From contig JALOCB010000002.1 of the NCBI GenBank assembly GCA_023227985.1, forward strand, positions 10,956 to 74,955: a stretch of 64,000 nucleotides of DNA. Direction: 5' to 3'. Of this stretch, positions 15,123-49,962 are shown piece by piece. How positions within the stretch are numbered: the stretch's first letter is position 1; each line of letters starts with the position of its first letter. The stretch comes from Candidatus Omnitrophota bacterium. GTDB lineage: Bacteria; Omnitrophota; Gorgyraeia; Gygaellales; Profunditerraquicolaceae. Below the pieces are notes generated by a model. It ran no database searches. It was given only the letters and a program-made list of their open reading frames with translations, and was not told the origin of the DNA. Made by a program: the position numbers and the translations under genes.

Positions 15123-15586
15123 AAAACGCGCAGGTGAGGAAGGCGAATATAAAGGATATAAAGCAGATACAGGGGTTGATAAATTATTTTGCTAAGCATG
15201 ACCTGATGCTGCCCCGTTCGTTGAATGAGTTGTACGAGAATATACGGGATTTCTGGGTCATCGACCTCAAAGGAAAGATCCTGGGCTGCGCCGCGGTGCA
15301 TATATCCTGGGATGATCTGGTGGAGATCAAGTCGGTGGCAGTGGATAAGGATCACCATAAGAAAGGCCTGGGCTTGCTGCTTTTAGGCGAATGCTTAAAG
15401 GAATCAAGGTCCCTGGGAGCCAAAAGGGTGTTTGTCCTGACCTATGCCCCGGATTTTTTCCGCAAGGCCGGATTCCGCAAGATCGAGCATTCGGCGCTGC
15501 CGCATAAGATATGGGCCGAATGCATCAACTGCCCGAAATTCCCGGATTGCAAGGAGACCGCGCTTTTAAAAAATATTGCAAAATAG
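15119..15586 (+). CDS. GNAT family N-acetyltransferase (short N-acetylglutamate-synthase-like)
   Basis: 155 aa; acetyl-CoA-binding Q/RxxGxG/A-like segment HKKGLGLLLL and a C-terminal CxxCxxxxxC cluster; overlaps glgC stop. Confidence 0.55.
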   Translation: MKNAQVRKANIKDIKQIQGLINYFAKHDLMLPRSLNELYENIRDFWVIDLKGKILGCAAVHISWDDLVEIKSVAVDKDHHKKGLGLLLLGECLKESRSLGAKRVFVLTYAPDFFRKAGFRKIEHSALPHKIWAECINCPKFPDCKETALLKNIAK

Positions 15587-15663
15587 AACAGGTATAGTAT
15601 AATTAAGTGTTTTTATATCAAAAGTGTTATGGGGTTGGGATTTGAGGCGGTATTAATATGACT

Positions 15664-15808
15664 GACACCCGCGCAATGGCACCCGACTTTATTGGAATAA
15701 GTCGGTGTGTGCTCGGTAGCACAGAATATGTGCCGGTGTGGTATCTTGAAAAATAGACACCCGGACCAATCGGAATATGGTCCGGTGTCGCATAGGTATG
15801 CGAGGAGG
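15664..15808 (+). repeat. family A palindromic units (ACACCCGN...caatNggaat...NCCGGTGT) ending in GCATAGGTATGC hairpin + GAGGAGG SD upstream of the acyl-CoA dehydrogenase gene
   Basis: GACACCCGGACC-aatcggaatat-GGTCCGGTGTC then GCATaggtATGC, GAGGAGG, ATG 15814; related half-units further upstream. Confidence 0.65.
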
Positions 15809-15813
15809 TTTGA

Positions 15814-16968
15814 ATGTTGGATTATTTGTTGACTGATGAACAGAAAATGATCAAGGAACTGGCCCATAAGATCGCCGAGGAAAAGGTCAGGCCGGTGGCA
15901 GCAAAGCACGATAAAACCGAGGAATTCCCCTGGGAGATTTTGAAGGTTATCGGGGAATCCGATCTTTTCGGATTGTTCATTCCCGAGGAATACGGCGGGA
16001 TGGGCGTTAATGTGCTCAACCTTTGTCTGGCTACCGAAGAATTATCCCGCGCCTGCGGCGGCATCGCGGTCTGCTATGCGGCTTCGGCTTTGGGGACATT
16101 CCCGATAGTATTGTTCGGCAATGACGAGCAGAAAAAGAAATACCTGCCGGACCTGGCCAGGGGGACCAAGATAGCGGCATTCGGCCTTACTGAGCCTGAG
16201 GCGGGTTCAGATGCCGGCGCGATCAAGACCACTGCCAGAAAAGAAGGCGATCATTACGTATTGAACGGGACAAAGCATTTTATCACCAACGGCGGCGAGG
16301 CTCAGACTTATACCGTGGTGGCGATGACCAATAAGGCTAAAGGGGCTCGCGGGGCCAGCGCTTTTATCGTGGAAAAAGGGACTAAAGGATTTACCTTCGG
16401 CAAGAAAGAAGATAAGATGGGTATCCGCGCCTCGATCACCCAGGAACTGGTCTTTAACGAATGCAAGATTCCCAAAGAGAACCTGCTTTCCAAGGAAGGC
16501 ATGGGTTTTATCGTGACAATGAAAACATTCGATATGTCCCGCCCCGGCGTTGCGGCGCAGGCCTTAGGTATAGCGCAGGGCGCGATGGAGCTGGCGGTAA
16601 AGTATGCCAAGCAAAGGCACCAGTTCGGCAAATCCATCTCCAGTTTTCAGGGGATACAGTGGATGCTGGCGGATATGGCCACTGAGATAGAGGCGGCCAG
16701 GGCATTGGTTTATTCTTCGGCCAGGATGGTGGACGCCGGAGTAAAAGACGTGGGCAGCGCCTCGGCGATGGCCAAGCTTTACGCCTCGGACGTGGCTATG
16801 AGGGTGACTAACGACGCTATCCAGATATTCGGCGGGTACGGTTATATGAAGGATTATCCGATCGAAAAATATATGCGTGACGCGAAGATCACTCAGATAT
16901 ACGAGGGTACCAACCAGATCCAGCGCAATATCATCGGTCTGCAGTTGATAAAAGATCTGGCCAAGTGA
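15814..16968 (+). CDS. acyl-CoA dehydrogenase (butyryl-CoA dehydrogenase-like)
   Basis: 384 aa ACAD fold; GFGLTEPEAGSD, catalytic Glu near C-terminus (IYEGTNQIQR); followed by etfBA. Confidence 0.85.
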   Translation: MLDYLLTDEQKMIKELAHKIAEEKVRPVAAKHDKTEEFPWEILKVIGESDLFGLFIPEEYGGMGVNVLNLCLATEELSRACGGIAVCYAASALGTFPIVLFGNDEQKKKYLPDLARGTKIAAFGLTEPEAGSDAGAIKTTARKEGDHYVLNGTKHFITNGGEAQTYTVVAMTNKAKGARGASAFIVEKGTKGFTFGKKEDKMGIRASITQELVFNECKIPKENLLSKEGMGFIVTMKTFDMSRPGVAAQALGIAQGAMELAVKYAKQRHQFGKSISSFQGIQWMLADMATEIEAARALVYSSARMVDAGVKDVGSASAMAKLYASDVAMRVTNDAIQIFGGYGYMKDYPIEKYMRDAKITQIYEGTNQIQRNIIGLQLIKDLAK

Positions 16969-16981
16969 TCCAAGGAGGGTA

Positions 16982-17356
16982 ATGGATAACGTACCCGAAA
17001 GAAGGAAATTCACCAGGGCGCTTTTATTCGCGGAGATCATCTTTAAGCGCAGGAAAACGCCGGATGAACCCGGACAGGTTTCAATAACCCGGAATATCGG
17101 CCGGGGAGGGTTGTGCATTATTTCCAGTATCAAGCTGGATGACGGAGAGATATTGGACCTGAGCATATCACTGCCTCAGGAAGATAAAGCGATCGAGGTC
17201 GCCAGCAGGGTGGTCTGGGTAAAAGAGTATACAATAAGCGAGACTATACAGGCAAAAAGATATACTGTGGGGGTGGAGTTTTTTGGCGGCAGCGAGCTGG
17301 CGATGGAAAAGATCGACCGCTATATAGCCAGCCACAACAACCCGGGAAAATCATGA
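16982..17356 (+). CDS. PilZ domain protein (putative c-di-GMP receptor)
   Basis: 124 aa; RRKFTR (RxxxR) and NIGRGG (D/N-x-S/G-x-G-G) PilZ signature motifs; 4-nt ATGA overlap with etfB start. Confidence 0.65.
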   Translation: MDNVPERRKFTRALLFAEIIFKRRKTPDEPGQVSITRNIGRGGLCIISSIKLDDGEILDLSISLPQEDKAIEVASRVVWVKEYTISETIQAKRYTVGVEFFGGSELAMEKIDRYIASHNNPGKS

Positions 17357-18150
17357 ACATAATCATTTGCATCAAGCAGGTTCCGGAAACAACAGAGGTC
17401 AGGATCAATCCCCAGACCAATACCTTGATCCGTGACGGGGTCAAATCAATTATCAACCCTTTTGATATGTACGCCATCGAAGAAGGCGTGCGGCTTAAGG
17501 AGCGGTTCGGCGGAAAGATCGTGGTGGTAACTATGGGCCCGCCGCAGGCTGAAGCCGCTTTGCGCGAAGCCATATCTATGGGCTGCGACGAGGCTATTCT
17601 GGTATCCGACCGCGCGTTCGCAGGAAGCGATACCTGGGCTACCAGCTATACCTTATCCTGCGCCATAAAAAGGATCGCCAAAGAGGCCGGCGGCATGGAC
17701 CTGGTGATCTGCGGAAAGCAGGCGTCCGACGGTGACACGGCGCAGGTAGGGCCGGGGATCTCCACGCACCTGGACATCCCCCAGATAACCTATGTCAAGA
17801 AGATCGAAGAGATAAAAGAAAAAAAGGCGCGGGTGGAAAGAATGACCGAAGAAGGCTATGACGTAATGGAAGCCCCCCTCCCGGCATTATTTACGGTAGT
17901 CAAAGAGATCAATCAGCCGCGCATACCTTCTTTGAAAGGGATGATGAAGGCCAAATCCGCGAAGATTACCCATTGGACGGCCAAGGATATTGACGCGGAT
18001 CCCCAGAACCTGGGGCTTTCCGGATCGCCTACGAACGTGGTAAGGATATTCACTCCGCCGCAGCGCCAGGGCGGCCAGATGCTTGCCGGGGAGACTCCGG
18101 AAATTGTTGAGAAACTGGCGGGATTAATCAAAAGCGAGATAATAGGGTAA
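17353..18150 (+). CDS. etfB: electron transfer flavoprotein beta subunit
   Basis: 265 aa; MNIIICIKQVPET start and EtfB fold motifs. Confidence 0.85.
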   Translation: MNIIICIKQVPETTEVRINPQTNTLIRDGVKSIINPFDMYAIEEGVRLKERFGGKIVVVTMGPPQAEAALREAISMGCDEAILVSDRAFAGSDTWATSYTLSCAIKRIAKEAGGMDLVICGKQASDGDTAQVGPGISTHLDIPQITYVKKIEEIKEKKARVERMTEEGYDVMEAPLPALFTVVKEINQPRIPSLKGMMKAKSAKITHWTAKDIDADPQNLGLSGSPTNVVRIFTPPQRQGGQMLAGETPEIVEKLAGLIKSEIIG

Positions 18151-18159
18151 ATAAAAACT

Positions 18160-19362
18160 ATGGGAATCCAGATCATCGATGATAAGTGCGTGGGATGCGG
18201 TTTGTGCGTTAAGGCCTGCCCGTTCGGGGCCGTTACTTCCGTAAACAAGAAAGCGATTATCGACCTGCATAAATGCAATCTCTGCGGGGCGTGCGTGCCG
18301 GCCTGCAAGTTCAAGGCCATATTGCTGGAAAAGCCTCAGGCTGTCCAGGCCAAGAAAGACCTCAGCGTTTATAAAGGGGTATGGGTGTTTGCCGAGCAGA
18401 AAAAGGGCAAAGTCCAGTCGGTTTCTTTTGAGCTGGTAGGCAAGGCCAGGGAGTTGGCGCAGAAATTGAATACCAGCGTTTCGGCGGTTCTTTTAGGAAG
18501 CAATGTCGAGATGGGCGCGCAGGAATTGATCGCCGGCGGCGCGGATAATGTTTACCTGGTGGATTCCCCGGAGTTGGCAAATTTCCTGGATGAGCCGTAT
18601 ACCAACGTATTGGTGAAATTGATCCAGAAATACAAACCGGAGATCGTCTTAAGCGGGGCTACGATAATCGGCAGGTCGCTGATGTCCAGGATCGCCATTA
18701 AGATCGACGCCGGGCTTACCGCGGATTGCACCGGATTGGATATTGATCCGGACAGGAAACTGCTTTTGCAGACCAGGCCTGCTTTCGGCGGAAACATTAT
18801 GGCTACGATCATCAGCCCGAATCACCGGCCGCAGATGTCCACGGTAAGGCATAAGGTTTTTGTCCAGCCGGCATTAGAGAAGCAGAGAAAAGGCAAGGTT
18901 ATTAAAGAGTCATTCCCGATCTCGGAATTTTCTTCCCGGACCTCGCTCATCGATGTCATTGAGGAAGTGGAGAACCTGGTGAATTTATCCGAAGCGGATA
19001 TCATAGTTTCCGGAGGAAGGGCCCTGGGCGGCCCGGATAATTTTCAGATGTTAAGGGACCTGGCCCAGGTATTAGGCGCGGCAGTGGGCTCTTCGCGCGC
19101 GGCGGTGGATGCCGGATGGATACCATATTCCCATCAGGTCGGCCAGACCGGAAGGACCGTGGCCCCTAAGCTTTATTTCGCCTGCGGTATATCCGGACAG
19201 ATCCAGCATCTGGTAGGTATGCAGTCCTCCAAGGTGATCATTGCGATCAATAAAGATCCTGATGCGCCTATATTCAAAGTGGCTACGTATGGTATTGTGG
19301 GGGACATCTTCGAGATAGTGCCGGCTTTGACCAAAAAATTCAAGGAAGTCTTGAGAAAATAA
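18160..19362 (+). CDS. etfA: electron transfer flavoprotein alpha subunit with N-terminal 2x[4Fe-4S] ferredoxin domain
   Basis: 400 aa; two CxxCxxCxxxCP motifs (CVGCGLCVKACP, CNLCGACVPAC) followed by EtfA FAD-binding domain (SGQIQHLVGM). Confidence 0.85.
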   Translation: MGIQIIDDKCVGCGLCVKACPFGAVTSVNKKAIIDLHKCNLCGACVPACKFKAILLEKPQAVQAKKDLSVYKGVWVFAEQKKGKVQSVSFELVGKARELAQKLNTSVSAVLLGSNVEMGAQELIAGGADNVYLVDSPELANFLDEPYTNVLVKLIQKYKPEIVLSGATIIGRSLMSRIAIKIDAGLTADCTGLDIDPDRKLLLQTRPAFGGNIMATIISPNHRPQMSTVRHKVFVQPALEKQRKGKVIKESFPISEFSSRTSLIDVIEEVENLVNLSEADIIVSGGRALGGPDNFQMLRDLAQVLGAAVGSSRAAVDAGWIPYSHQVGQTGRTVAPKLYFACGISGQIQHLVGMQSSKVIIAINKDPDAPIFKVATYGIVGDIFEIVPALTKKFKEVLRK

Positions 19363-19521: not shown

Positions 19522-19550
19522 TTGACAAAAAACATCTTTTTCTTTATAAT
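19522..19550 (+). promoter_or_regulatory. sigma70-type promoter, exact consensus TTGACA-17-TATAAT, driving the small HTH gene (and possibly smc)
   Basis: TTGACA 19522-19527, 17-nt spacer, TATAAT 19545-19550, in an AT-rich spacer. Confidence 0.7.
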
Positions 19551-19675: not shown

Positions 19676-19852
19676 ATGTTCGCGAATGACCTGATGACAA
19701 TAGAAGACTTGGCAGCTTACCTTAAAGTAAGCCGCCGGACTATTTATGAATGGCTCAAGCAGAATAAGGTCCCGGCGTTAAAGATCGTCGGGCAATGGCG
19801 TTTTAAAAAAGATAAAATAGATTCATGGATGGAAGCGCAGGCCCATGCATAG
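19676..19852 (+). CDS. small helix-turn-helix DNA-binding protein (excisionase/MerR-like HTH_17 family)
   Basis: 58 aa below the ORF-track cutoff; LMTIEDLAAYLKVSRRTIYEWLKQNKVPALKIVGQWRF matches excisionase-family HTH; AAGGAA SD 7 nt upstream; exact consensus promoter upstream. Confidence 0.6.
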   Translation: MFANDLMTIEDLAAYLKVSRRTIYEWLKQNKVPALKIVGQWRFKKDKIDSWMEAQAHA

Positions 19853-23464: not shown

Positions 23465-24664
23465 TTAGCCGCAGGTGTTGTTCTTGCCTTTTTTCTTCGC
23501 TTCGTAGAGCGCTTTGTCTGAATAAGATCCGAGTTCCGCGGCAGTGTTGCCGTTCTCCGGGAATGTGGCCAGCCCAAGGCTGGTAGTGATGGTCTTTTGG
23601 GGAAGGTTCTCCTGATGGATGAAGGGGTGCTTGGCGATATTCTCCCTGAACCTCTCGGCGATCATAAACGCCTCTTTTTTATCGGTATAAGGCAGGATGA
23701 TCGCGAATTCTTCTCCGCCATAACGGCAGACATAATCCATTTTTCTGGATTGATTCTTGAGCAGGTTGGCCATTTCTTTGAGGATATGATCGCCGGCCTG
23801 GTGGCCGAAGGTGTCGTTGTATACCTTGAAATCGTCGATATCCAGCATAAGCAGGCTGAACTGGGTGGATGTGGCTTTGCTTTTTTCCACTTCCACGCCC
23901 AGCAGGTATTGGAAGTACCCGTGGTTCCAAAGGTTGGTCAGGGAGTCCAGGTGCACCCGGATAACGGTCTTTTCATATAACTGGGAATTTTCGATAGCCA
24001 GGCCTGCCTGGTTGGCGAGCATTCGCAGCATCCGCAGCTCGTCTTTGCCGATAGGTTTATGGGTGATGAAATTATCCGCCATAATGATACCGTTGACCTT
24101 GTCTTTGGCTTTCAGCGGGACCAGGACCACTTCGTCGGACTTAAGGATCTGTATGACCGGGTCATTCCGGTAGTTCTGAATGGTCTCCTGGGTCAGGTGC
24201 AAAGGCATTCCTTCCGTCACGCATAAAGAAAGAAGGTTGTTTTTTTGTTCGCTTAACGGCATTTTGATCAACTGGACCTGTTGGCTAAAACCGGATTTTG
24301 GGGTATTATCCGATACCTTGTAGGCGTTGATCAGGTCTTCCATATCCATTTTTTCCTGTTCGACATAGTTCCAGACCCGGTTGGCTTCTTCCCCTGATTC
24401 CGGGCCGATCGCGGTTTTTCCCTCAATGATATTTTCTTTTTCGTTGACCAGGAAGAGGACCGCCCGGTTGAATCCCAGGCCGATGTGTGCGGTTACCCCG
24501 GTAAGGATGATGTAAAGGATCTCATCCAGTTTGAGGGTGGTGCGCATAGCGTTGGAGATCTCGTAAAGGATCGTCAGCTCGGATTTTGTGCGTTCCAATT
24601 CCTGCTTTATTTTGGCTAATTCGTCCATTGGTTTAAATTTAACACAATTTTGCCTGGCTGTCAA
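23465..24664 (-). CDS. diguanylate cyclase, coiled-coil + GAF + GGDEF domains
   Basis: 399 aa; GGEEF active site (RYGGEEFAI), upstream GAF-like region; only sizeable minus-strand gene in the window. Confidence 0.85.
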   Translation of the reverse strand: MTARQNCVKFKPMDELAKIKQELERTKSELTILYEISNAMRTTLKLDEILYIILTGVTAHIGLGFNRAVLFLVNEKENIIEGKTAIGPESGEEANRVWNYVEQEKMDMEDLINAYKVSDNTPKSGFSQQVQLIKMPLSEQKNNLLSLCVTEGMPLHLTQETIQNYRNDPVIQILKSDEVVLVPLKAKDKVNGIIMADNFITHKPIGKDELRMLRMLANQAGLAIENSQLYEKTVIRVHLDSLTNLWNHGYFQYLLGVEVEKSKATSTQFSLLMLDIDDFKVYNDTFGHQAGDHILKEMANLLKNQSRKMDYVCRYGGEEFAIILPYTDKKEAFMIAERFRENIAKHPFIHQENLPQKTITTSLGLATFPENGNTAAELGSYSDKALYEAKKKGKNNTCG

Positions 24665-26175: not shown

Positions 26176-26297
26176 CGCCGGTGTTGACTAGGTAGTCACA
26201 CCCAATTTGATTGGTAAGGTTGGTGTTGGGCAAGTAATGCACACCCGGCGCCAATGGGAATTGCGCCGGTGTTGCATTCGTATGCAAGGAGGGTTGG
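26176..26297 (+). repeat. family A palindromic units ending in TGCATTCGTATGCA hairpin + AGGAGGgttGGAGG SD directly upstream of htrA
   Basis: CACACCCGGCGC-caatgggaatt-GCGCCGGTGTTG then GCATtcgtATGCAAGGAGGG, ATG 26301; additional ACACCCAA...TTGGTGTTG unit upstream. Confidence 0.65.
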
Positions 26298-45885: not shown

Positions 45886-46016
45886 TTTTTTCGGTCAAAT
45901 ATACTCGCCTTCCACAAAATCAGAATATTTTTAGGGCGCTAATGTGTTTGCAATCCATGGTTCTGTGGTACAATATCATTCAAGGTTGGTTTTATTAAAA
46001 TAACAGGAGGAGAAAA

Positions 46017-46820
46017 ATGGAACAGCGGGATACAATTAATTTTGCGATAAATTGGTTGATCAAAACCGGGGTCTTTGTCGTGGCTTTAGTAATCTTCTTT
46101 GGAAGTTTTTATGTAATAGGCGTCGGCCAGGTAGGCGTAATATTTAATCAGGCTACGGGGCAGACTAAATCGGTTCAATCGGGGTTCAACTTGAAAATGC
46201 CGGTCATTGAACAGCTCAGTGTATTTGATATCAGAACGCAGCGGATCGATATAGTGGAAGATTGCGCTTCCAAAGATCTGCAGCTGGTTAGGATGAAAAC
46301 CGTAATAAACTACCATCTTGATTATACCAAAGTAAATGAAATATTCACAAAAGTAGGCAGGGATTATACGGATAAGATCATCATCCCTATAACCAATGAG
46401 ATCGCCAAGTCTTTAGTATCTCAATACACTGTGGAGAATATTATTGTAAAGCGCGCGGAATTGAAAGATGCTATTGAAGTGGCCTTGCGTGTAAAATTAG
46501 GCGAGTATTTTATCGTAATCGAGAGTGTTAATTTAGTGAATGTGGATTTCACCCCGGAATTCAACCGGATAGTTGAGGCGAAACAGATCGAAGAGCAGAA
46601 GATCAAAACAGCTGAGTATAAGAAGATGCAGGCCGCTCAAAACAAAGAAGCGGTTATTTTAGAAGCCGAGGGGGAATCCAAACGGCAGGAATTGATCAAG
46701 GCAACGGTTAATCCGCAGATCGTTTCTTTGGAATGGATCAAAAAATGGGATGGCAAGCTCCCGGTCACTATGTTAGGGGATAAAACAGTAATGATGGTTA
46801 ATCAGGATGAAAACAAATAA
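46017..46820 (+). CDS. SPFH/band 7 (prohibitin-like) membrane protein
   Basis: 267 aa; N-terminal TM, SPFH core (GQVGVIFN...), C-terminal coiled-coil; own promoter-like site and AGGAGG SD. Confidence 0.75.
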   Translation: MEQRDTINFAINWLIKTGVFVVALVIFFGSFYVIGVGQVGVIFNQATGQTKSVQSGFNLKMPVIEQLSVFDIRTQRIDIVEDCASKDLQLVRMKTVINYHLDYTKVNEIFTKVGRDYTDKIIIPITNEIAKSLVSQYTVENIIVKRAELKDAIEVALRVKLGEYFIVIESVNLVNVDFTPEFNRIVEAKQIEEQKIKTAEYKKMQAAQNKEAVILEAEGESKRQELIKATVNPQIVSLEWIKKWDGKLPVTMLGDKTVMMVNQDENK

Positions 46821-46843
46821 AGCTTTTTAAGCAGATCCCAAAA

Positions 46844-46874
46844 GGGCTGGACTTGATCGTCCAGCCCTTTTTTA
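46844..46874 (+). terminator. rho-independent terminator after the SPFH gene
   Basis: GGGCTGGAC-ttgatc-GTCCAGCCC followed by TTTTTTATT. Confidence 0.75.
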
Positions 46875-46923
46875 TTACTGATTTTGCGGGTCCTGGCCTG
46901 CCGGCAGGCAGGCTGTCGAGCCG

Positions 46924-47008
46924 TTAAGTTAGTGAGGCCTGTGTCAGTCGCTCGGACAGTCCTCGGCCTTTGGCCTGCGGAACTCGCTTTGTGACACAGC
47001 CCTCACAT
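46924..47008 (+). repeat. family B MITE-like element (short ~85 bp copy), just upstream of the HicAB islet
   Basis: TTAAGTTAGTGAGGCCTGTGTCAGTCGCTCGGACAGTCCTCGGCC...GGAACTCGCTTTGTGACACAGCCCTCAC; matches the ends and core of the 45713 copy, lacks its middle segment. Confidence 0.7.
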
Positions 47009-47135
47009 GTATTTGCCGAAAATCTCCTGATTGTGCGCTCCAGCAAACCCGCAAGGCTAATCTTGTTATCTTGATTTTTTTGTGTTTCACTAAACAGGAT
47101 GAAAACAAAAATTTTACTTGACAGTGATACCGGAT

Positions 47136-47190
47136 ATGGTACCATAAATTTCGATATGGACTTGAAAAATGGTTCCAGATATGGTATCAT
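47136..47190 (+). promoter_or_regulatory. candidate HicB operator: palindromes ATGGTACCAT (47136-47145) and ATGGTATCAT (47181-47190) within GATATGGTAYCAT direct repeats in the hicA promoter region
   Basis: Perfect 10-bp palindrome plus a near-copy about 45 bp apart, downstream of TTGACA 47118 and 16 nt upstream of hicA ATG. Confidence 0.5.
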
Positions 47191-47205
47191 TGTGATGGAG
47201 AGAAG

Positions 47206-47466
47206 ATGCCGGATATCTTCAAAATTTATGAAAAGGCTTGTGCTTCTTCGAATAATCTTTCTTTTCTAGAGTTATGTAACTTAGTAGAAGGAGCGGGTTT
47301 CGTTTTTGATAGGCAGAAAGGTACATCGCATAAGATTTACAAGCATCCATTAATACGGGATAGGATAGATGCAATGGTTAATATACAAGATGTACATGGC
47401 AAAGCTAAAAGCTGGCAAGTGAAAGTAGTCTTAGATTTGATCGAAAAATACGGCTTAATAAAATAA
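47206..47466 (+). CDS. hicA: HicA-like toxin (type II TA mRNA interferase), N-terminally extended
   Basis: 86 aa; DRQKGTSHKIYKHP matches HicA GSHxxxxHP core; AT-rich; first gene of the pair as in hicAB. Confidence 0.55.
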   Translation: MPDIFKIYEKACASSNNLSFLELCNLVEGAGFVFDRQKGTSHKIYKHPLIRDRIDAMVNIQDVHGKAKSWQVKVVLDLIEKYGLIK

Positions 47467-47493
47467 TAAAGAATAAAAAAGGGGGCGGGCGCC

Positions 47494-48006
47494 ATGGGGA
47501 AATATTCAATTAATATTGTTTGGAGTGATGAGGATGCTGGATTCATTGCTACTATCCCTGAATTTAAGAATTTGTCAGCTTTTGGAAATACTTATGAAGA
47601 GGCTCTGAAAGAAGCTGAAACTGTTCTAGAAGGCTATATTGAATCTCTGAAAGCCGAGAATGTACCCTTACCAGAACCACACAAGATATCAGAATATAGT
47701 GGACAAACTCGTTTAAGAATGCCACGTGATTTACATCAGGCAATAGCGTTAGGAGCGCAAAGACAAGGGGTGTCCCAAAATACTTATATGGTAATGCTTC
47801 TTTCAATGAATTATACGATTAATTCCATGTTGCCAATAATTGAACACGCAGGAGAACATATATTTATAACTCGTGTAAGTTCCCGGGGCGTTGATAATGA
47901 CAAAACATATTATAACCCGCTAGTAGCTCATCGGAATAATTTAGTAACAAATGATAATACAATTGAAGTCAAAGGGTTGAATAATATTGTGAGAGGTGAT
48001 TTATGA
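47494..48006 (+). CDS. hicB: HicB-like antitoxin (HicB N-terminal RNase-H-fold domain + RHH-like DNA-binding segment, C-terminal extension)
   Basis: 170 aa; KYSINIVWSDEDAGFIATIPEFKNLSAFGNTYEEALKEAETVLEGYIESL matches UPF0150/HicB; RLRMPRDLHQAIALGAQRQG RHH-like. Confidence 0.6.
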   Translation: MGKYSINIVWSDEDAGFIATIPEFKNLSAFGNTYEEALKEAETVLEGYIESLKAENVPLPEPHKISEYSGQTRLRMPRDLHQAIALGAQRQGVSQNTYMVMLLSMNYTINSMLPIIEHAGEHIFITRVSSRGVDNDKTYYNPLVAHRNNLVTNDNTIEVKGLNNIVRGDL

Positions 48007-48398
48007 TTAAAAATATTTGGACGGTGTTAGCATCTAATATTATAACTGATAAAGAAACAAATATGGTAAGTTATGTTAATTGTATTGAAATAGTTATAAC
48101 TAAAGGTTTACCAGCGAAAATGCCAACTATTGGTATTGGCACTCTTTGGGAAAAAGAAACTGATCAAGATAATTCCTTAATGGTTAAAATAACATTAATT
48201 TCGCCCTCGGGGAAAATCAAAGATGTTTTTAAAACCGACAGTATACCTTTACCAGTTCGCCGACATCGGTTAAACATAATTGCTGGTAATTTGGTAGCTG
48301 AAGAAGAAGGTGAATATAAGATTCGAGTCGAGGTTATGGGTTTGGATAAATGGATTATTGCGAATGAAGTTCCATTTGTTGTTACGGTAAGAAAATAA
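48003..48398 (+). CDS. hypothetical protein, translationally coupled to hicB (no recognisable domain)
   Basis: 131 aa ORF overlapping hicB stop by ATGA; AT-rich codon usage like hicAB; no motif recognised. Confidence 0.4.
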   Translation: MIKNIWTVLASNIITDKETNMVSYVNCIEIVITKGLPAKMPTIGIGTLWEKETDQDNSLMVKITLISPSGKIKDVFKTDSIPLPVRRHRLNIIAGNLVAEEEGEYKIRVEVMGLDKWIIANEVPFVVTVRK

Positions 48399-48722
48399 AA
48401 GACAATAAGTAGAGTAATTAAATAATTAGCTAATTTGGAATGCCAATAAAAGAATTTGGCGGGAGTGCGAGCGAATGGAGATTTTAGCCAAAGCAGCTTG
48501 AGTATTTTGGGTATCCCGGCGGAGCGTAGCGACAACACCGGGACAGCGAGGATGTTAAGGAGCATTTGTTAGAATAAATGCGACGAGTTCCGCAACTGCC
48601 AAAATGCGAAAGACCTTTGGCGGCTCGATAGGGTAAAATCGACTTTGAGCGAACAACCCGGCAAATTCATTAAAATACCTTCCTATATCCGCTATCCGCA
48701 AAGCCGCAAGACCAGAAAATCT

Positions 48723-48778: not shown

Positions 48779-49962
48779 ATGGCAAAATTGACTGTAAAAG
48801 ACCTGGATTTGAAGAACAAAACTGTATTAATGAGAGCGGATTTTAATGTTCCGCTGGACGCTAACCTCAACATTACTGACGATACCCGCATCCGCGAAAC
48901 TTTACCCACGATCAAGTTTATCCTTGAAAAAGGCGCAAAAAAGCTCGTTCTGATGAGCCATTTAGGCAGGCCGGACGGCAAAAGAGTGGATAAATACAGC
49001 TTGAAACCGGTAGCAGCCAAGCTGGAAGAATTACTCAAAGAAAAAGTAAATTTCCTGAATGATTGCGTTGGCCCGGAAGTCAAGGCCGGAGTGATCAATT
49101 CTAAGGAAAGGATTGTCCTTTTAGAGAACCTTAGATATCACGCAGAAGAAGAGGGCAATAACGCGGATTTCAGCCAGCAGTTAGCCGCATTAGGCGAAGT
49201 TTTCGTTAATGACGCCTTTGGCACAGCGCACCGCGCTCACGCTTCCACAGCCGGAGTGACAGATTCCTTAAATCCGCCGCTGGTTTCCTGCTGGAAAAAG
49301 AGATCAAATATTTAGGCGACGCGGTAAGCAATCCCCAGAAGCCTTTTATGGTCATCCTGGGCGGGGCTAAAGTTTCCGATAAGATCGGGGTTATTGAGAA
49401 TTTACTGCCAAAATGCGAGGCTATTATCATCGGCGGCGGCATGGCTTATACCTTCCTGAAAGCCCAGGGCAAGGCTATCGGTAATTCCAAATTAGAGAAA
49501 GACAAGCTGGACCTGGCTAAATCCATCCTGGATAAAGCCGGCTCTTTGAAGAAAGAGATCGTTCTGCCGGTGGATCATGTGGTAGTTGAGACTGTGGACG
49601 CCAACGCCAAGTTCGAGATCACCTTGACAGACGCGATCCCTGATGGAAAGATCGCAGTGGATATCGGCCCGAAAACCATAGAATTGTTCAATTCCAAATT
49701 AAGCACGGCAAAAACCATTGTCTGGAATGGCCCGCTGGGTATCTTTGAGATGGACGCGTTCAGCAAAGGCACCTCTGAAGTAGGCAAATGCCTGGCAGGG
49801 CTTAAGGCAGTCACTATTATTGGCGGCGGTGATACCGCGGCCGCAGTGGCTAAATTCAAATTACAGGATAAGATGACCCATATTTCCACGGGCGGCGGAG
49901 CAAGCCTGGAATTCTTAGAGGGCAAGAATCTTCCCGGGATCGAGGCATTAACTGATAAATAA
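48779..49962 (+). pseudogene. pgk: phosphoglycerate kinase, interrupted by an apparent single-nucleotide deletion (frameshift near 49262-49267); could be a sequencing artefact
   Basis: ORF 48779-49315 ends ...[23 protein letters not shown]. The -1 frame reads [42 protein letters not shown] and continues into ORF 49348-49962. Canonical Pgk needs GVTD-FLKS, i.e. gatTtcc where the sequence has gattcc. Confidence 0.8.

Follow-up and report, generated by a model that had tools for sequence, protein, structure and literature searches.

Could a bacterial second messenger act on a redox enzyme of energy metabolism through a receptor encoded in the operon of that enzyme? The question is raised by a locus in a stretch of 64,000 nucleotides (nt) from a Candidatus Omnitrophota bacterium (assembly GCA_023227985.1, contig JALOCB010000002.1, positions 10,956 to 74,955 of the forward strand; hereafter, the window). 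Here a gene for a small PilZ protein lies between acd, which encodes an acyl-CoA dehydrogenase, and etfB and etfA, which encode the two subunits of an electron-transferring flavoprotein (Etf). PilZ proteins are known as receptors of cyclic diguanosine monophosphate (c-di-GMP); most known outputs of this messenger concern motility, adhesion, exopolysaccharide synthesis, secretion, transcription or the cell cycle.

The initial annotation of the locus knew of no described PilZ partner of Bcd/Etf, and none was found in the searchable literature. In it we found nothing relevant that connects PilZ or c-di-GMP with Etf, acyl-CoA dehydrogenase, electron bifurcation or Omnitrophota, no account of a PilZ receptor whose target is a soluble redox enzyme in energy metabolism, and no description of a protein regulator of any bifurcating Etf complex. 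PilZ receptors and bifurcating Etfs are each already well known; what is new is their association in an operon, with a dedicated PilZ subfamily and a second PilZ lineage at another position of the same operon. The arrangement is real and recurs across the phylum and, judged from gene context, a function in linking c-di-GMP to bifurcation is plausible.

The PilZ gene and its operon

The initial annotation had placed a 124-amino-acid (aa) open reading frame (ORF) with two PilZ signature motifs between acd and etfB. Its coordinates and both motifs were confirmed (Table 1), with Gly standing for Ser in the second motif. Profile search and structure prediction upheld the family assignment. The protein matched the Pfam PilZ profile (PF07238) at 45.7 bits (cutoff 22.5; E 8.7e-12), residues 6-116 covering profile positions 1-101 of 102. 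The AlphaFold2 model, computed with ten homologs as input, consisted of the six strands of a PilZ barrel and a C-terminal helix (residues 105-119), with a mean predicted local distance difference test score (pLDDT) of 78. The top 30 Foldseek matches of the model in the PDB were all PilZ domains, mostly c-di-GMP co-crystals (TM-scores 0.65-0.72), and included MotI/DgrA (5VX6), MrkH, Alg44 (4RT1), YcgR (5Y6G), BcsA, PA0012 and MapZ-CheR1 (5Y4R_D). A conserved Phe closing the last strand is a literature criterion for a canonical PilZ, and the corresponding F100 was invariant in both alignments (A1 and A2). The ratio of nonsynonymous to synonymous substitution rates (dN/dS) of pilZ was 0.17-0.20 at unsaturated dS (0.3-0.6), which indicates purifying selection; for acd it was 0.01-0.03, and for etfB and etfA 0.03-0.08. 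Judged by its profile match, its predicted fold and its substitution rates, the protein is a canonical-fold PilZ domain and its gene a genuine, constrained one.

The putative ligand site is strongly conserved. In the N-terminal RxxxR arm (R8-K-F-T-R12 in the window, with R7 ahead), R8 and R12 were invariant in 119/119 subfamily members, and R or K preceded the arm in 98% of them. Among the other positions, N38 was kept in 98% (D in the rest), I39 in 99% and G43 in 100%. For the second motif the literature criterion is [D/N]hSxxG, where h is hydrophobic; the window sequence N38-I39-G40-R-G-G43 keeps the N, the hydrophobic residue and the G, with Gly replacing the canonical Ser. The same NIGRGG form was common to the window PilZ and its 80-89% identical relatives, and across the subfamily the position was S in 82% and G in 18%. 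Since several separate lineages (the window clade and the sampled loci L029, L094 and L124) show the Gly form with the rest of the site intact, the alignment suggests that Gly is tolerated and that the putative c-di-GMP site is not decaying. Binding of c-di-GMP by this protein is predicted from the conserved site.

The gene is closely packed with its neighbours. A Shine-Dalgarno sequence, GGAGG, stands immediately 5' of the pilZ ATG (16974-16978), and the junctions measure 13 nt (acd-pilZ), -4 nt (pilZ-etfB) and 9 nt (etfB-etfA). The negative value reflects the ATGA in which the pilZ stop overlaps the etfB start, as the initial annotation had read it. Among 45 non-redundant pilZ-etfB junctions, such an overlap was found in 19 and a spacing of 0-20 nt in 10 more (29/45 in total). 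Between the acd start and the etfA end we found no promoter-like site on the + strand, nor any convincing terminator inside the operon. The four genes share a strand, meet at short or overlapping junctions and keep a conserved arrangement, with neither a promoter-like site nor a convincing terminator between them; acd-pilZ-etfB-etfA is thus predicted to be one operon, in which pilZ is translationally coupled to etfB.

Table 1. Features of the acd-pilZ-etfB-etfA locus and related features (positions in the window unless a locus number is given)
Feature	Position	Strand	Description
Promoter-like site, TTGCAA-16-TATAAT	15576-15603	+	10/12 consensus; the better of those upstream of acd
acd leader	15604-15813	+	about 210 nt; REP-like palindromic hairpins, one at 15758-15788
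acd	15814-16968	+	384 aa; Pfam Acyl-CoA_dh_N, _M, _1; predicted short-chain acyl-CoA dehydrogenase / enoyl-CoA reductase of Bcd/CarC type
pilZ (slot or type 1 subfamily, stand-alone)	16982-17356	+	124 aa; PF07238; RRKFTR at residues 7-12; NIGRGG at residues 38-43
ATGA overlap of pilZ stop and etfB start	17353-17356	+	etfB ATG 17353-17355; pilZ TGA 17354-17356
etfB	17353-18150	+	265 aa; Pfam ETF; small Etf subunit, predicted bifurcating type
etfA	18160-19362	+	400 aa; Pfam 2x Fer4 + ETF + ETF_alpha; large Etf subunit
EtfA ferredoxin domain, 2x[4Fe-4S]	18160-18339	+	N-terminal, residues about 1-60
GAF-GGDEF diguanylate cyclase gene	23465-24664	-	Pfam GGDEF 159.6 bits, plus GAF; 4.1 kb past etfA, outside the operon
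Post-etfA PilZ genes (outside the window)	L076:6573-6914; L040:6608-6952; L077:6616-6966; L170:4501-4848; L171:4501-4848		Examples of the second PilZ subfamily

The enzyme encoded around pilZ resembles known bifurcating systems. The best solved relative of EtfA was CarE of Acetobacterium woodii (6FAH_A, 448 bits), with residues 1-395 aligned to 1-392, the ferredoxin domain included. In this domain the translation holds two CxxCxxCxxxC motifs (Cys10/13/16/20 and Cys39/42/45/49). The initial annotation had offered two readings of the ferredoxin-bearing EtfA, FixB-like or bifurcating; the second stood, and the first was rejected in favour of a CarE/LctC-like protein on account of this full-length match. 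The best solved relative of EtfB was CarD (6FAH_B), and the next four were also experimentally bifurcating Etfs, so that 6FAH, 7KOE, 5OL2, 4KPU and 7QH2 were the top five for both subunits. EtfB scored 219-264 bits against these and 99-111 bits, under half of the bifurcating Etf scores, against the canonical ETFs of human and Paracoccus. Gly123 of Acidaminococcus fermentans EtfB is invariant in bifurcating Etfs and bulky in canonical ETFs that bind adenosine monophosphate, the small residue leaving room for a second flavin adenine dinucleotide (FAD) (PMC12630350). Gly127 of the window EtfB aligns with this residue (4KPU_B) inside DGDTAQVGP. These comparisons support an assignment of the Etf to the bifurcating CarDE/Bcd-Etf type.

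For Acd, the best solved relatives were the Bcd of A. fermentans (4L1F, 451 bits) and then that of Clostridium difficile (5OL2_C). The best NCBIfam names for the three proteins were those of acryloyl-CoA reductase AcrABC (NF042972, NF042971 and NF042970), and none of Acd, EtfB and EtfA reached an NCBIfam equivalog cutoff (AcrC 486 vs 640, AcrB 255 vs 475, AcrA 347 vs 600). As a side observation, in two sampled loci the two Fe-S cluster motifs of the EtfA ferredoxin domain are separated by a low-complexity insert, which lengthens the protein to 442 aa (L104:4270-5598) and 415 aa (L113:2940-4187).

Two PilZ lineages at one operon

The synteny of acd-pilZ-etfBA that the initial annotation had proposed to look for in related genomes was found only in part: it held for the PilZ subfamily, nearly all of whose loci lie in this slot, and failed for related species at large, about 89% of which lack a PilZ there. 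The two results come from two samples, one anchored on PilZ and the other on EtfB.

For the first, metagenome contigs were scanned with PilZ patterns alone, giving 80 loci. In a separate, first round of homologs, the eight closest (P0002-P0009) all lay between acd and etfB (8/8), including those at 37-41% identity, and the Acd and EtfB flanking them were 78-98% identical to those of the window even where the PilZ was only 37-41% identical. A profile search of the family returned 650 hits, far more than the first round had shown, and orthologs were intact down to 30% identity. We defined subfamily membership as a full-length PilZ scoring at least 138 bits against the subfamily profile, the score distribution being bimodal. 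Such a PilZ was present in 39 of the 80 loci, and in 37 of these 39 it occupied the acd-pilZ-etfB slot; the other two were L093, a flankless contig of 1.1 kb, and L124. PilZ genes scoring about 50-125 bits stood among assorted housekeeping genes, not in the slot. The window PilZ belongs to a narrow Omnitrophota subfamily that is near-exclusive to the acd-etfB slot.

The slot may hold more than one copy. Tandem slot-type genes in the order acd-pilZ-pilZ-etfB were found at L104:2469-3357, L106:2983-3811 and L113:1356-2146, and the flankless L093:126-1013 is also a tandem pair. Two further observations concern single loci. A weak third PilZ lies 3' of etfA in L113 and L100. The most distant homolog of the first round, P0010 (L005:3033-4403; 35% identity), follows a Flavodoxin_2/FMN_red gene near a nitroreductase gene, a flavoprotein neighbourhood that is possibly a coincidence.

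A second, distinct subfamily of stand-alone PilZ proteins was found 50-270 nt 3' of etfA. Its members have about 113-119 aa, intact RxxxR and D-I-S-x-x-G motifs and a C-terminal LKPIPLVLR, and they score 25-43 bits against the slot profile and 130-158 against their own. A profile search with this type returned 135 members, of which five contexts were sampled. Two high-scoring members (L170 and L171) came next to etfA in a block glgC-GNAT-acd-etfB-etfA-PilZ-HTH-smc, with a GAF-GGDEF gene convergent on smc as in the window. The three lower-scoring ones (L172:4501-4845, L173:4501-4842 and L174:4501-4839) shared a conserved locus, folC-mnmE-folE(GTP cyclohydrolase I)-MamF_MmsF-PilZ-PKD. The window carries only the slot type.

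For the second sample we took one genome per GTDB species and obtained 80 Omnitrophota loci with EtfB at 72-83% identity. A PilZ filled the acd-etfB slot at 8 of the 74 scorable junctions, and acd directly adjoined etfB at the other 66. Decayed PilZ remnants were sought in the gaps of the PilZ-negative junctions and none were found (all E > 0.9), an apparent gap in L079 consisting of masked N's. Just after etfA, a PilZ was present in 15 of 66 scorable species, 14 times of the second type and once (L075) as a slot-like copy. At least one PilZ at either position was found in 19 of 60 fully scorable operons (32%), and PilZ at both positions in three. Since the slot is empty in 66/74 species, the Acd/Etf complex would work without a PilZ, and the slot PilZ is to be seen as an accessory and not as a core subunit. 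Other occupants of the acd-etfB junction, named by reading their sequences, were an IS200-like (Y1) transposase ORF (L041:4041-4439) and a 485-aa MORN-repeat-like protein (L038:310-1767).

On the tree the PilZ-positive operons are clustered, 22 of the 33 having a nearest neighbour that also carries PilZ (shuffling gave 10.9 +/- 3.4). PilZ distances correlated with EtfB distances (Spearman rho 0.32), and parsimony required about 13 PilZ gains or losses over 99 operons. The slot pilZ is an old, mostly vertically inherited and frequently lost accessory gene. We also found two EtfB residues that track PilZ presence, His207 (18/33 vs 1/66) and Ser85; both are confounded by phylogeny and mark one PilZ-rich region of the tree.

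A possible role for the PilZ protein

Our reading, held tentatively and at somewhat less than even chances, is that the window PilZ would be a MapZ-like, c-di-GMP-dependent adaptor, made in step with Acd/EtfBA and altering the activity of the complex as a lineage-specific accessory regulator. A functional link between PilZ and complex is suggested because the gene is inserted within the operon, the overlap with etfB is kept over deep divergence, duplicates stay in the slot and two PilZ lineages are attached to one unit.

According to this mechanism, the operon would encode a NADH-dependent, ferredoxin-reducing, bifurcating enoyl-CoA reductase like CarCDE or Bcd-EtfAB, together with a PilZ made in step with it. 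c-di-GMP would bind the RRxxxR arm at the N-terminus and the N-I-(S/G)-x-G-G loop of the PilZ, and the loaded protein, probably an intercalated dimer given its R/K-RxxxR arm, would dock on Acd/Etf through its barrel face or its C-terminal helix. Bifurcating Etfs are described as requiring that the FAD-bearing head domain make a large swing and that the dehydrogenase dock. A bound 14-kDa PilZ could plausibly gate either; once docked, it could hinder the head-domain swing, the docking of Acd or the ferredoxin domain, and the activity of the complex would change. Fermentative electron flow would in this way be tied to the c-di-GMP state of the cell. The broader proposition, that c-di-GMP directly gates a bifurcating enoyl-CoA reductase in Omnitrophota through two separately recruited PilZ lineages, one in the acd-etfB slot and one after etfA, we regard as possible rather than probable.

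Several observations weigh against this regulatory role. Physical contact between PilZ and Acd/Etf, and the direction of its effect, are what we infer, and the arguments for the interaction all come from gene context. Most related species carry the operon with the slot empty and free of remnants. The constraint on pilZ is 3-8 times weaker than on its acd and etf neighbours, and the window protein has Gly at a Ser position that contacts c-di-GMP. A high-scoring PilZ of the slot subfamily, that of L124, stands alone in AT-rich DNA, outside any operon. PilZ-positive singletons elsewhere on the tree lack the EtfB His207 and Ser85, so that this apparent docking-surface signal may reflect shared ancestry. 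Fusions of PilZ with Acd or Etf were absent from the best 150 of 6339 hits in a search of 1.84 billion representatives, among which only PilZ-PilZ tandems were seen. Finally, the gene order around the operon is conserved phylum-wide, the block asd-truA-glgC-GNAT-acd-etfBA-HTH-smc-GGDEF being syntenic in relatives, and unlinked PilZ paralogs also keep fixed positions amid unrelated housekeeping genes, as at folC-mnmE-folE-MamF-PilZ-PKD. Because of these last two facts, the conserved position of the PilZ could be due to inheritance alone.

The alternative that survives best follows from this point. The PilZ could be a working c-di-GMP receptor with its target elsewhere (for example pili, secretion or another enzyme), its gene having entered the slot in an ancestor and being kept there for steady expression and by conservative gene order, so that its place would tell nothing of its partner; we consider this a credible explanation, though not one we would expect to prevail. 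Besides the syntenic block, the position-fixed stand-alone paralogs across species and the lack of fusions among those best hits, it would account for a PilZ that evolves much faster than Acd or Etf and whose repeated loss (about 13 events by parsimony, counted as gains or losses) left no visible change in the operon. It is less easily squared with an insertion inside a tightly coupled operon whose start/stop overlap is kept at 19 of 45 junctions, and with duplicates that stay in the slot. A second PilZ subfamily on the same operon, at another position, is hard to ascribe to chance, and no pilus or motility gene was annotated in the window, where Pfam covered 61 of 71 main ORFs.

The Gly in the second motif leads to another explanation, in which the PilZ of the window clade has lost or weakened its nucleotide binding and acts as a ligand-free accessory or assembly factor of Acd/Etf. 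The NIGRGG motif of the window PilZ and its 80-89% identical relatives would fit, and there is precedent in a non-binding Xanthomonas PilZ and in PA2960, which act on PilB/FimX. However, those known non-binding proteins lack the RxxxR arm, which is intact here. The other ligand-contacting positions are invariant in the subfamily, 82% of its members keep the Ser, and the Gly variant occurs in several lineages with an otherwise intact site. We therefore consider this improbable. As for a chance frame or pseudogene remnant between acd and etfB, the empty slot of most relatives is all that would favour it, and it is refuted by the Pfam match over the full domain (E 8.7e-12), a dN/dS of about 0.2 at dS 0.3-0.6, intact orthologs to 30% identity, a strong Shine-Dalgarno sequence and a confident predicted fold.

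If the PilZ does act as a c-di-GMP-dependent adaptor of Acd/Etf, core fermentative energy conservation would be a direct output of second-messenger signalling, and the PilZ would be the first known protein regulator of a bifurcating Etf. It would offer the electron-bifurcation field a natural allosteric handle on head-domain swing or ferredoxin delivery, and the c-di-GMP field a new class of target. It would also suggest a way for ultra-small and possibly host-dependent Omnitrophota to adjust their fermentative electron flow to lifestyle state. The organisms are uncultured, and still the idea is directly testable with four small soluble proteins in heterologous expression. If the link is not real, the locus would be a caution that a conserved in-operon position need not reveal the partner of a protein in lineages with conservative gene order.

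Surroundings of the operon and known systems

The promoter-like site upstream of acd is likely the operon promoter, and its -10 region is invariant in the relatives L001 and L003. The hairpins of the leader that follows belong to a dispersed element resembling repetitive extragenic palindromic (REP) sequences, with compensatory stem changes in L003 (L003:408-645) and absent from the L001 leader. The element, CACCCGG..CAAT.GGAAT..CCGGTGT, occurs several times in the acd leader and once after recA (26242-26272), and has no Rfam match. A c-di-GMP riboswitch in the leader was considered and rejected (no hit in Rfam, whether at the gathering threshold or at E<=1; folding z-score -1.3).

The diguanylate cyclase gene noted in the initial annotation about 4 kb downstream on the opposite strand is indeed there (Table 1), beyond the HTH_17 and smc genes. 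In its translation the GGEEF site is intact, and an RxxD I-site precedes it by five residues. By its predicted product, this gene shows the source organism to be able to make c-di-GMP. In two operons with a post-etfA PilZ a GAF-GGDEF gene is also convergent with smc (L170:8499-9348 and L171:8510-9348), inside a generally conserved housekeeping synteny. Directly after etfA, a perfect 12/12 sigma-70 consensus (TTGACA-17-TATAAT, 19522-19550) lies 5' of a 58-aa HTH_17 gene (19676-19852) and smc, and marks what is predicted to be a separate transcription unit.

Elsewhere the window holds housekeeping genes: those of the fab, his, opp and arg groups, along with leuCDB, asd, truA, glgC, smc, recA, secDF, mfd and pgk/tpi. 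Within the Pfam coverage given above, the window showed neither EAL nor HD-GYP genes and none for crotonase, hbd or thiolase, and the subfamily hidden Markov model found no second PilZ in it. Two details are unrelated to the operon. Phosphoglycerate kinase (PGK) is split over two adjacent ORFs (48779-49312 and 49348-49959; Pfam PGK positions 1-158 and 185-379), which could be explained by a frameshift or stop, by a pseudogene or by faulty assembly. The stretch at about 46000-48600 is low in GC (0.40-0.44 vs about 0.50 elsewhere) and may be a small mobile or toxin-antitoxin islet; besides small unannotated ORFs it holds an SPFH/Band 7 gene and one that resembles HicB-family antitoxin genes.

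Among known systems, the nearest in the proposed mode of action is the single-domain adaptor MapZ (PA4608) from Pseudomonas aeruginosa; with c-di-GMP bound, this PilZ protein attaches to the methyltransferase CheR1 and inhibits it. Like MapZ, the window PilZ stands alone, has about 120 aa and combines a six-strand barrel with an RRxxxR arm at its N-terminus and a helix at its C-terminus, and MapZ is among its fold matches (5Y4R_D). MapZ and other PilZ proteins make contact with their partners through this C-terminal helix, and by analogy the window PilZ would likewise regulate an enzyme by direct contact. Unlike MapZ, to which it is only about 13% identical and whose cluster it does not share, it has Gly at the motif Ser. 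The partner presumed for the window PilZ is a flavoenzyme complex that serves energy metabolism, whereas that of MapZ is a chemotaxis enzyme, and the pilZ gene lies inside the presumed partner's operon.

On the side of the enzyme, the window resembles CarCDE of A. woodii (6FAH) in a full-length EtfA/CarE match that includes the 2x[4Fe-4S] domain and in an EtfB closest to CarD. It resembles Bcd-EtfAB of C. difficile (5OL2) and A. fermentans (4KPU/4L1F) in an Acd closest to bifurcating Bcds, in the bifurcating-type Gly of EtfB and in the order acd-etfB-etfA. It differs from both in that, in the literature searched, their described operons carry no PilZ or any other nucleotide-messenger receptor. 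Its best NCBIfam names fall under the equivalog cutoff, and genes for crotonase, hbd or thiolase are lacking nearby.

The closest structural neighbours of the PilZ are those of BcsA, Alg44 and YcgR/MotI, which share its canonical fold. The principle by which c-di-GMP gates a machine through contact with a PilZ would, by analogy, be common to all of them. Those PilZ domains serve exopolysaccharide synthases or motors; the machine associated with the window PilZ is a soluble redox enzyme complex, and the PilZ itself is a separate polypeptide.

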